IMG/VR virus record: IMGVR_UViG_3300005841_000939
DNA length: 64,000 nt
Origin: a virus
Lineage: Duplodnaviria > Caudoviricetes
Direction: 5' to 3' (one strand)
Under the pieces are notes generated by a model, which was not told the origin of the DNA, searched no databases, and worked only from the letters and a program-made list of their open reading frames with translations. The position numbers and the translations under genes are program-made. Positions 31,292 through 44,411 of this stretch are shown in pieces; the first letter of the stretch is position 1; each line of letters opens with the position of its first letter.

Positions 31292-31492
31292 TCATATATA
31301 TTTCTTTAGTATAAAACTTTCCCAGGTATAAACCATATCACTAATATCATAAGTAATTATGGAATGTCTGGATTCTTTTGGTAAGGCTAATAAGTTTTGA
31401 GTAAAAAAGAAAAAATTATCCCATTCAGGACTGTCCCGTTCAAATACTAACGGAACTCTAATAAATTCATTTATTTGAATCCTATTTGCCAT
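31292..31492 (-). CDS. KxxR-family protein
   Basis: KESRHS..TWESF. Confidence 0.65.
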   Translation of the reverse strand: MANRIQINEFIRVPLVFERDSPEWDNFFFFTQNLLALPKESRHSIITYDISDMVYTWESFILKKYI

Positions 31493-32389: not shown

Positions 32390-32734
32390 TTAACCTAAAT
32401 TAATTTTATAGGACTGAGTATTATCAAACAATATCTCCATAAGCTTTGCAGTACTATTACGCTTTATATGTCTTTCTGCATATCTTTCAACTAGTGATTC
32501 CCATGTAATCTCTATGTTATCCTTTCTATATGTTTTTAAGAAAGGTGAATATCCATACCGTGTTTCTTTATGACTATAAACTAATTCACCATATTTCCTA
32601 GCAACAGCTTTTGGAATAGGTCTATCACAGGAAACTAATTCAGATGGAATAAAATTTGGAAAAGGGGCATTAACTGTCGGGAAATGTATATCATCAAAAC
32701 TCATTTTAAATTTCCTTTTGCAGCATATTTCCAT
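32390..32734 (-). CDS. chimera: degenerate capsid fragment plus KxxR module
   Basis: FDDIHFPTVNAPFPNFIPSELVS then KETRYGY..ITWESLVERY. Confidence 0.7.
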   Translation of the reverse strand: MEICCKRKFKMSFDDIHFPTVNAPFPNFIPSELVSCDRPIPKAVARKYGELVYSHKETRYGYSPFLKTYRKDNIEITWESLVERYAERHIKRNSTAKLMEILFDNTQSYKINLG

Positions 32735-32898
32735 CTAGATTCGGATATTAAATTATCCCATGTTGCTTTAACATTACCAGAATCATAATTATATCCTTTG
32801 TAATTGTTTCGGGTTTCTTTAAGAAATAAATCAATAAATTTGTAAGAAACATCAAATTCTCTTAAATAAATTCCTGGTTTTATATAATTTGTACTCAT
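32701..32898 (-). CDS. chimera: tail-sheath-like N-terminus plus KxxR module
   Basis: YIKPGIYLREFDVS then KETRNNY..ATWDNL. Confidence 0.72.
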   Translation of the reverse strand: MSTNYIKPGIYLREFDVSYKFIDLFLKETRNNYKGYNYDSGNVKATWDNLISESRWKYAAKGNLK

Positions 32899-33143
32899 TC
32901 GTTAACTTTCGTTTAGCTTTTAAAAACTTCTTGACTTGCGGCATTTCTGTGGTAAGATAAATTTTTAGGCTCGGCAAGGAAGGCAACCAAGTTTACAGAC
33001 CCATTTGCTTACTAGAATACCGCTAAGCCGTTTATTGTTATGTTCCTTTATCAATACCTTATTCATATTCATTTTCTTACTCATTTCCCTTTTACTCGTA
33101 TTGGTAATATCTTATTAGCATGTGGCATTGGATTACCGATATA

Positions 33144-33512
33144 TCATGCAACTTTATTAATTCTTTTAATACAAAGCTCTTTCATATAGATTGTTTTATT
33201 TTGGCCTTCAGTAACTAGAGTGTAGAAACATTTTGATTCTATATCTATACCTGCATGCATATTCCATAAGACAGAATCAAGGGATTCCATTTCAGAATCA
33301 CTTGTAGTGTCTATTGAAGCCTTTCTCCATAGAAATACATTTTTAATATGAAGAAAGGCTTGACTAGCTTCTATTGGTTTAGATACTAAATGTCTATCTT
33401 CTTTAGGAAAACAGAATATCACATGGAATCGTTTTCCATGAATAGTTTTATTAAAGCCTTCAATTGGTAATGAAGCATTGCGTTCAGTTGAATAGAATTG
33501 CCAATTACTCAT
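33144..33512 (-). CDS. KxxR-family protein (paralog of 34456)
   Basis: MSNWQFY..FPKEDRH..IKNVFLW. Confidence 0.7.
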   Translation of the reverse strand: MSNWQFYSTERNASLPIEGFNKTIHGKRFHVIFCFPKEDRHLVSKPIEASQAFLHIKNVFLWRKASIDTTSDSEMESLDSVLWNMHAGIDIESKCFYTLVTEGQNKTIYMKELCIKRINKVA

Positions 33513-35883: not shown

Positions 35884-36152
35884 TATTTGAATAGACCCTG
35901 AATACCATATTGATCAAGTATGCACTTTTGTTTTATATCTTTAATTCGGTATTCATTGGCTATGAATGAATTAGGGTTTAAGTTAGATGAAGGATTATCC
36001 GAGGTAATTATTAAACTATCATCTCGTTTCCAACCAAATACATATTCCTTTAATTCAACTAAAGCCATAATTTTTGACTTAAAATTGAAGGGATTTTTAT
36101 ATTGATTTTGCCTATTTATTGGAGTATTGATAAGGGTCAAAATATCTGTCAT
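35883..36152 (-). CDS. KxxR-family protein (paralog of 36973)
   Basis: PINRQN..LKEYVFGWKR..ANEYRIKDI. Confidence 0.75.
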   Translation of the reverse strand: MTDILTLINTPINRQNQYKNPFNFKSKIMALVELKEYVFGWKRDDSLIITSDNPSSNLNPNSFIANEYRIKDIKQKCILDQYGIQGLFK

Positions 36153-36297
36153 ATGTTTCCATTAAAATACTTTGAATTCGCAGGTCATTTGTTCTTATAT
36201 AAATAGAAGGTTTTATTTTTAAGAAGCTTTCTCGTATTTTGCAAGTATACAATAAAAGATCCCCAGCGAAAGGATATGTATTTCTATTGACCTTAAT
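36112..36297 (-). CDS. KxxR-family protein with possible ATT start
   Basis: KVNRNTY..IRESFL..NDLRIQSI; TAAGGA 7 nt upstream of ATT; no ATG. Confidence 0.6.
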   Translation of the reverse strand: MKVNRNTYPFAGDLLLYTCKIRESFLKIKPSIYIRTNDLRIQSILMETYDRYFDPYQYSNK

Positions 36298-38136: not shown

Positions 38137-38344
38137 ATTTAATATCTTTTATTCTTTTTTCATTAGCCATTATGGAATCTTTTTTGAGATAATATCCTTC
38201 GTCAATAATATCAAAACTATCCTCTTGCGTCATTTTAAGAAATGATTCTTTTACAGTGCAAGTATACAATTGATAATTTGTTATAAAAGGAGTTTTATAG
38301 GTATTTCTAAAAATTTTATTTTTAATATTATTAATGACTAACAT
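38126..38344 (-). CDS. KxxR-family protein
   Basis: KIFRNTY..VKESFL..ANEKRIKDI. Confidence 0.75.
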   Translation of the reverse strand: MLVINNIKNKIFRNTYKTPFITNYQLYTCTVKESFLKMTQEDSFDIIDEGYYLKKDSIMANEKRIKDIKYEE

Positions 38345-38561
38345 GTTTATTTTTCCAAACTATTTTATAAATTGCATAATAAATAACAACATTTTCAAGT
38401 TTCTTATCAGCTATGAATCTAAAAGCAGAAGCTTCATAGTTATAGGTAGTTCTTTTCGTAACATACTTAGAATACTCATTTGCCTTAGGAAAACTTTGTT
38501 TAATAATGACCCATTCTCTTACATCAAATTCTCTTATATATGATTGTCGTGTTTGCATCAT
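38331..38561 (-). CDS. KxxR-family protein
   Basis: MQTRQSY..WVIIKQSF. Confidence 0.7.
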   Translation of the reverse strand: MMQTRQSYIREFDVREWVIIKQSFPKANEYSKYVTKRTTYNYEASAFRFIADKKLENVVIYYAIYKIVWKNKHVSH

Positions 38562-40156: not shown

Positions 40157-40383
40157 TAAACTAAACCTTTAAACTCTATTCCATTATCGGAATCTTTATA
40201 CATAAAAAAGGATTTAGAATTATTCAGGAAAAGAAATTTAGTTAATATATATTTCCACTTGTTGTTTATTTGTTTAAACGAATCGGATTTATAGTTTTCT
40301 CTATATTCTTTTGTTAAAAATGCTGAAATAGATATAGATACAGGATCTATCGGGAAGTTTTCCATAATTATTTTTCTAAACAA
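40156..40383 (-). CDS. KxxR-family protein
   Basis: KEYRENY..KWKYILTKF. Confidence 0.65.
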   Translation of the reverse strand: MFRKIIMENFPIDPVSISISAFLTKEYRENYKSDSFKQINNKWKYILTKFLFLNNSKSFFMYKDSDNGIEFKGLV

Positions 40384-40735
40384 AATTTAATAATTTATAA
40401 TTGTGATTTTTTAAGATTGAATATCGTGATCGTAAACCTATATTTGGTTTTATGTCTTCTTTCTTAAAAAAATTAATAATTAAATTTTGCCAGGACTCTT
40501 TGATAGTGTTTAATGCATATTCTGATTTAAAATTATTTCTATTTTCTTTATTTAATTCAATTTCATAAACAGAATTATTGAAATTAATTGGCACATATGG
40601 AGCATAAACATAACCAACATCCCAAGTATCATCAAACCTTTTTGTATATTTTAAAACATCATCTTTTAAAATATTTAATATTTCATCTTCTATTTCTTTT
40701 TTATATTTTTCAACAAGCTCATCAATATTTTTCAT
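40376..40735 (-). CDS. chimera: telescoped T4-type capsid C-terminal motifs plus KxxR module
   Basis: EIEDEILNIL, DVGYVYAPYVPI and KPNIGLRSRY around KENRNNF..ESWQNL. Confidence 0.8.
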   Translation of the reverse strand: MKNIDELVEKYKKEIEDEILNILKDDVLKYTKRFDDTWDVGYVYAPYVPINFNNSVYEIELNKENRNNFKSEYALNTIKESWQNLIINFFKKEDIKPNIGLRSRYSILKNHNYKLLNFV

Positions 40736-44238: not shown

Positions 44239-44411
44239 TTTTTATCTCTTAAATTAAAACCAGAGCATTCAATTCTGAGAATGAGCTGTCTATCTCTTTC
44301 AGTGTATAATCTCAGAAAATTACATTTTATATCACGCATCACCCAAGCCAATGAATTGTTCATAAAACGACAACTATAACCCTGAAAGTTATAACGATTA
44401 ATAATTTTCAT
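44235..44411 (-). CDS. KxxR-family protein (58 aa, not in track)
   Basis: IINRYN..IKCNFL. Confidence 0.6.
   Translation of the reverse strand: MKIINRYNFQGYSCRFMNNSLAWVMRDIKCNFLRLYTERDRQLILRIECSGFNLRDKN

Follow-up and report, generated by a model that had tools for sequence, protein, structure and literature searches.

The minus-strand gene at positions 32,701-32,898 encodes a 65-aa protein whose N-terminus resembles, in register from Met-1, the N-terminal arm of T4-type contractile tail sheaths, and this resemblance is unusual for the window (the whole 64,000-nt stretch of DNA analysed here). The resembling peptide is fused to a module shared with other mini-genes of the same array. Judged from sequence comparison, the match is too short to tell a copy of a sheath gene from chance, and homology to sheaths is not demonstrated. 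We give about an even chance to the peptide being an array-intrinsic or fortuitous look-alike in an orphan accessory gene.

The 65-aa gene and its setting

The window belongs to an uncultured, ~380-kb T4-like rhizosphere phage that carries both rIIA and rIIB and has no close cultured relative. Its GC content steps down at ~30,000 from ~44% to 27-33% over a whole array of minus-strand mini-genes. The higher-GC side contains plus-strand genes including rIIA/rIIB, SprT-like and HNH genes, and the array, in which minus-strand mini-genes are tightly packed over 24 kb (30,357-54,486), has a GC content 12-17 points below the remainder of the window. Exact-pattern scans of IMG/VR and JGI metagenomes detected no copy of the region, and protein-guided scans with rIIB, rIIA and the 65-aa ORF detected no relatives. 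In Xanthomonas phage XacN1 (AP018399), a rIIA-like gene was observed twice with equal scores, at 60.7 kb and 379.5 kb.

The 65-codon ORF is a real gene, its product being predicted by public gene callers. The identical product is present in the public gene calls of seven contigs of up to 379,560 bp, the ORF of a second rhizosphere run was identical and showed no variants, and the surrounding region was unaltered in several rhizosphere metagenome runs. Because an in-frame TAA stands two codons 5′ of the ATG at 32,898, translation can begin only at this ATG, and the spacing between Met-1 and the motif described below is fixed. The translation reported in the initial annotation, MSTNYIKPGIYLREFDVS followed by KETRNNY..KATWDNL, was exact. 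At its 3′ end, the gene overlaps the next one on the minus strand (a 104-aa product in public calls) by ATGA at 32,701-32,704.

On its 5′ side, the gene is preceded by a 245-nt gap (32,899-33,143, minus strand), which is atypical of the tightly packed array. The gap contains a weak GAAAG Shine-Dalgarno-like site 8-12 nt ahead of the ATG, and no sigma-70 match was found on its minus strand. A structured RNA on the minus strand was considered and rejected (fold z-score +1.06). The GC content of the gap is locally higher than that of its surroundings, and its plus (antisense) strand has a sigma-70-like site, TTGACT-16-TAAGAT with TG, at 32,931-32,958. Farther upstream, the plus strand of 33,281-33,390, antisense to a mini-gene, gave a below-threshold match to the Rfam tp2 sRNA (30 bits, with the gathering score at 50; E = 0.058), which is probably due to chance.

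The fusion architecture proposed in the initial annotation was recovered from paralogue alignments, which set the module boundary. An N-terminal extension (residues 1-18, MSTNYIKPGIYLREFDVS; 32,845-32,898, minus strand), including the sheath-arm-like core PGIYLREFDVS (residues 8-18; 32,845-32,877, minus strand), is followed by the array module (residues 19-55; 32,734-32,844, minus strand). The module belongs to a KE[TN]R..Y...TW..L subfamily identified by phmmer, jackhmmer and tblastn against local paralogues. The array family as a whole is defined by K-x-[NTDS]-R-x-x-[YF] with aromatic-x-x-[LI] 10-25 aa downstream, and the 65-aa protein conforms to this definition with KETRNNY at residues 27-33 (32,800-32,820, minus strand) and TWDNL at residues 46-50. 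The strict K-first motif occurs in 49 array ORFs, mostly at the extreme N-terminus, and a looser pattern in 62 of 107 ORFs, some of these being chance matches. The family is fast-evolving, with ~50 recognisable members. Many array members in 30,357-54,486 also share a second theme, [LI]-[KR]-[ES]-x-[FY]-[LF], as in CKIRESFLK, HLKETFLK and LCKLREEFL.

Among the window ORFs, the closest paralogues of the module by phmmer were those at 40,376 (E = 0.002), 31,119 (E = 0.004) and 32,390 (E = 0.017), supporting its earlier identification as a KxxR module. The subfamily obtained within the window by phmmer and jackhmmer consists of these three, the gene at 31,482 and an open frame at 36,112, all aligned from about residue 18-19 to residue 55 of the 65-aa protein. 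Pfam searches with 43 array members gave no meaningful match except Gp23 in the gene at 40,376-40,735. Derivation of the KxxR motif, or of the rest of the protein, from the C-terminal IDRNEF/IKPARSINF strands of the sheath was rejected: the ORF was missed by a profile of the sheath C-terminus, and an hhalign comparison of module and sheath returned a probability of 0.1%, indicating that the two are unrelated. The AF2 model of the 65-aa protein was of low confidence (pLDDT 52), with a coil at residues 1-18 (pLDDT <50) followed by two helices.

Within the databases searched, the gene appears to be without homologues outside its source phage. Among 5.8 billion proteins, a word-indexed search recovered only the 65-aa protein itself, IMG/VR and the ESM Atlas contained no homologue, and Pfam gave no match. 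The sole PHROG match was to 7438, a function-unassigned family of 71 positions, which covered residues 4-45 in one stretch (E = 0.0015). In the PDB, phmmer found no sheath, its top matches being methionine aminopeptidase. Only chance matches were returned by tblastn against 50,697 phage records, and a PF04984 search of two phage records linked only by a chance tblastn match found nothing.

Comparison with the tail-sheath arm

The initial annotation had given M..YxSPG(V/I)YxxExDxS as the typical start of contractile tail sheaths. A T4-type sheath, searched by HMMER against all of 1.84 billion representatives, yielded 150 mutually diverse sheaths, two of which were confirmed as sheaths by Pfam. 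Their consensus start, MxFQxSPGVxVxExDLTxIVP, has the core SPGVxVxExDL[ST], in which S, P, G and E are invariant and D is nearly so; the motif of the initial annotation is therefore sound for the T4 superfamily. An earlier sampling was confined to close T4 relatives, whose sheaths start M..LSPG[IV]ELKE, and the resulting arm profile was too narrow (E = 0.27 for the ORF).

The 65-aa protein reproduces the exact spacing of P, G, E and D, together with the hydrophobic positions (+2, +4 and +9) and S/T at +10. It thus carries P-G-[VI]-x-[VIL]-x-E-x-D-[LIV]-[ST] from Met-1, like the T4-type handshake strand (gp18 residues 1-20, upstream of PF22671, PF04984 and PF17482). Its Pro is residue 8, and that of the sheath representatives falls at residues 5-10 in 144 of the 147 scored. 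Residues 1-18 are predicted to be extended or unstructured, as in the sheath arm. Unlike the arm, they are not followed by the conserved segment xxIVPAVxTS...GxFxWGP, and Lys-7 occupies the place of the invariant Ser directly preceding Pro. Past residue 18 there is no likeness to sheaths, the score over 19 columns being 4 bits compared with at least 23 in real sheaths. The domains PF22671, PF04984 and PF17482 were absent from the protein when searched by Pfam, a sheath C-terminal profile and hhalign. The protein also differs from T4-type sheaths in being only 65 aa long and in lying in an early-type array. Two distant jumbo phages have sheath starts less similar to the ORF (MALISPGVEVNIVDES in XacN1 and MATLNSPGVDISVIDES in Atu_ph07), and the two representatives with the most similar starts are on unrelated contigs.

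An HMM comparison of the N-terminus with sheath profiles, which the initial annotation had suggested, gave a divided result. Standard Pfam, PHROG and PDB searches returned no sheath, the outcome that the initial annotation had named as counting against its proposal; because the Pfam sheath models begin no earlier than residue 24, the absent Pfam match is uninformative on the arm. When arm profiles were used in a local HMMER search, the ORF ranked first among the 465 window ORFs, with 8.1 bits (E = 0.05) and 6.0 bits (E = 0.2), the runner-up being only ~1 bit lower with the second profile. True arms scored 16.4 bits (T4) and 17.6 bits (XacN1) in the same type of search. An ungapped local PSSM gave 17.5 bits over PGIYLREFDVS (P = 4.5e-4 per random 65-mer), and the array runners-up had 13-14 bits. 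When the PSSM was anchored to a Pro at residue 5-10, the ORF scored 13-14 bits and again ranked first of 465, followed by ORFs with 4-8 bits; the random P for its score was 1e-5 to 5e-5, and the first rank was kept under every column choice tried. Real sheaths had a median of 30-32 bits and a 5th percentile of 21 bits on this scale, so that the ORF lies below 95% of them.

As decoys, we used 8,255 ORFs from T4-like loci, XacN1 and Atu_ph07, of which ~8,170 were non-sheath. None of the non-sheath decoys attained the score of the ORF with columns through +11, and two and seven exceeded it when columns +12 to +15 were added. When the protein was compared by hhalign with a sheath profile of 572 columns, the one best alignment placed residues 5-18 on columns 5-18 (E = 0.024, probability 2%). 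BLASTP with the most similar sheath start, residues 4-17 of P0147, gave 8/14 identities and 12/14 positives (E = 8e-5), although this pair was hand-picked. Over all methods and with register counted, the expectation at the level of the window is ~0.005-0.05 (0.005-0.02 for the anchored PSSM), a value that excludes the unquantified trial factor arising from choice of the motif after the window was read.

These results bear on the proposal that a virion protein donated its N-terminal arm to the module. In its present form, this would mean that the 5′ end of a T4-type sheath gene was copied long ago and has since diverged to give the first 17-18 codons, or that these codons encode a selected mimic of it, in either case fused in register to the module; we regard this as possible, if somewhat doubtful. 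The proposal draws support from the in-register, top-ranked match that non-sheath decoys did not equal over the arm columns, from the hhalign register, from the hand-picked P0147 pair, and from the exact spacing of residues that are invariant or nearly so in real arms. In addition, the match stops where the module begins. Nevertheless, the match is shorter than standard significance demands, the invariant Ser is missing and the motif was selected post hoc. None of the proteins of 115-2000 aa in the 5.8-billion set shared three 5-residue words with residues 1-40, and this collection includes the proteins of the 379,560-bp contig. The peptide is thus not a recent copy of any sheath, presumably including the phage's own. 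Restriction of the gene to its source phage also weighs against a sheath origin, as do the composition of the segment, which is as AT-rich as the array, and the outcome with five other large phage genomes, in which the arm profile found no extra arm copies. What stands of the proposal is that the extension is more sheath-arm-like than any other ORF start tested; donation by a sheath gene is opposed by the absence of standard profile matches, by the low score relative to real arms, by the lack of shared 5-mers and by look-alikes in the array.

Look-alike peptides and capsid fragments in the array

Pieces of the sheath-like peptide, YIREFDV and IKPSIYIR, occur in the array outside any sheath context. 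The array member at 38,331-38,561 (minus strand), which starts MMQTRQSYIREFDV, has YIREFDV directly after its own KxxR-type motif, with six of seven residues identical to YLREFDV. YFLREFS is found inside the array gene at 44,398. The presence of an LREFDV theme in several members would offer a simple array-internal origin of the N-terminus. Most likely, the sheath-like look of residues 8-18 arose inside the array rather than by copying of a sheath gene. The LREFDV half would then represent a theme that recurs after R-x-x-Y, as YIREFDV (38,331), YFLREFS (44,398) and IKPSIYIRTNDL (36,112), so that the N-terminus may be a degenerate first module and the preceding Pro-Gly coincidental. These look-alikes in non-sheath contexts count against a sheath origin, but they are individually weak (E = 0.07 to 2.3) and, not being significant themselves, leave room for it.

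Another array member is an uncalled open frame at 36,112-36,291 (minus strand). It reads NNKEYRIKVNRNTY..., and its second half, IKPSIYIRTNDLRIQSILMETYDRY, is similar to residues 6-33 of the 65-aa ORF. From stop to stop, the frame has its own KVNRNTY motif first and then ...YTCKIRESFLK..., and the motif is not preceded by an ATG, GTG or TTG. There is an ATT codon 7 nt past AAGGA, and public calls leave a 158-nt stretch empty here; the frame represents a copy in decay or else a gene initiated at ATT. This possible paralogue lacks the Gly and Glu of the arm, which disfavours a sheath origin of the peptide.

The same frame raises the alternative that a small array sub-lineage inherited residues 5-38 as a single unit, a strand-turn-strand running into KETR that is common to the second half of 36,112 and has a structural role of its own unrelated to virion proteins. 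Residues 5-38 were aligned by phmmer to residues 12-43 of the 36,112 ORF (E = 0.066), after which jackhmmer included this frame, and the PHROG 7438 match spans the extension and much of the module as a single stretch. Both matches are weak, however, the AF2 coil at residues 1-18 supports no fold, and the 36,112 frame, uncalled and without ATG, may be decaying. We therefore consider a common inherited unit improbable.

The initial annotation had also proposed that capture of structural epitopes by the module is recurrent, and independent support was obtained for virion-protein pieces in this subfamily. The closest paralogue of the module, a 119-aa product encoded at 40,376-40,735 (minus strand), contains a C-terminal fragment of the major capsid protein Gp23 that is split by the module. 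Its match to Pfam Gp23 (E = 2.5e-4, under the gathering score) extends over 76 residues and 42 profile positions (310-351), with the array module inside. The gene at 31,482 aligns with T4 gp23 in the region around VQPM (E = 0.011). The 65-aa protein is like the gene at 40,376-40,735 in belonging to the same subfamily and array and in having a virion-protein-like piece adjoining the module. It differs in that 11-14 residues match on one side only, whereas in its paralogue the matching stretch flanks the module on either side and, at 42 profile positions, has the length needed for profile significance. The occurrence of virion pieces in this subfamily favours a sheath origin of the extension, and the information per residue of the sheath-like match is about that of the Gp23 fragment, the match being merely shorter.

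An extension of these findings would be that the array includes a set of early mini-proteins displaying virion assembly-interface peptides (capsid N-arm, capsid C-terminal strands and sheath handshake strand) on a common small scaffold, with the 65-aa protein as the sheath member. Such proteins would be interface mimics that control or sabotage assembly, or baits for host sensors. We think this general scheme rather unlikely.

Possible functions and implications

If the N-terminus arose inside the array, as we favour, the 65-aa protein is probably a host-takeover or counter-defence binder, like other mini-proteins from variable early regions of phages. The two-helix module may serve as a scaffold and the variable N-terminal strand as the contact with a target.

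T4-like phages have hypervariable small early or accessory genes in 'hyperplastic regions'. The array is similar to these in consisting of tightly packed, translationally coupled ORFs of 45-135 aa with no database homologues and birth-and-death duplication, and differs from them in having ~50 members of one motif family in a single 24-kb low-GC block. Virion-protein epitopes also act as immune triggers, as in the T4 Gol peptide with Lit, capsid sensing by CapRel, and STAND/Avs sensors. The resemblance to these systems is one of concept only, a short conserved piece of a structural protein being the functional unit. We know of no established sheath-sensing defence. A 2026 preprint names the tail sheath only as a possible further sensing target (10.64898/2026.01.04.697583). 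Neither sheath-arm or capsid-fragment decoy genes nor such arrays were described in the literature we searched.

The N-terminus of the sheath is a known inter-subunit handshake strand (PMC10457771), and this role gives a free copy an obvious possible mode of action, which adds to the case for a sheath origin. A free strand might add a beta-strand to the sheet of the sheath C-terminal domain at the docking site for the neighbour's N-terminus, and could thereby hold back or cap sheath polymerisation, either premature polysheath of the phage itself or the tail of a competitor. Alternatively, it might occupy a host sensor that recognises the handshake strand. In a weaker form of the sheath explanation, the captured element was no more than a strong translation start, and the peptide is without function.

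As the evidence stands, the gene is an orphan mini-gene with an unproven likeness of 11-14 residues to the sheath arm, and it provides one data point on the role of a ~50-member array. If it is a true mimic, the peptide would provide the first free-standing example of the strand by which contractile sheaths are knitted together. Taken with the neighbouring capsid-fragment genes, it would suggest a strategy in which a phage produces assembly-interface peptides by themselves, and it would bear on the control of tail assembly, on competition between phages and on immune sensing of virion proteins.
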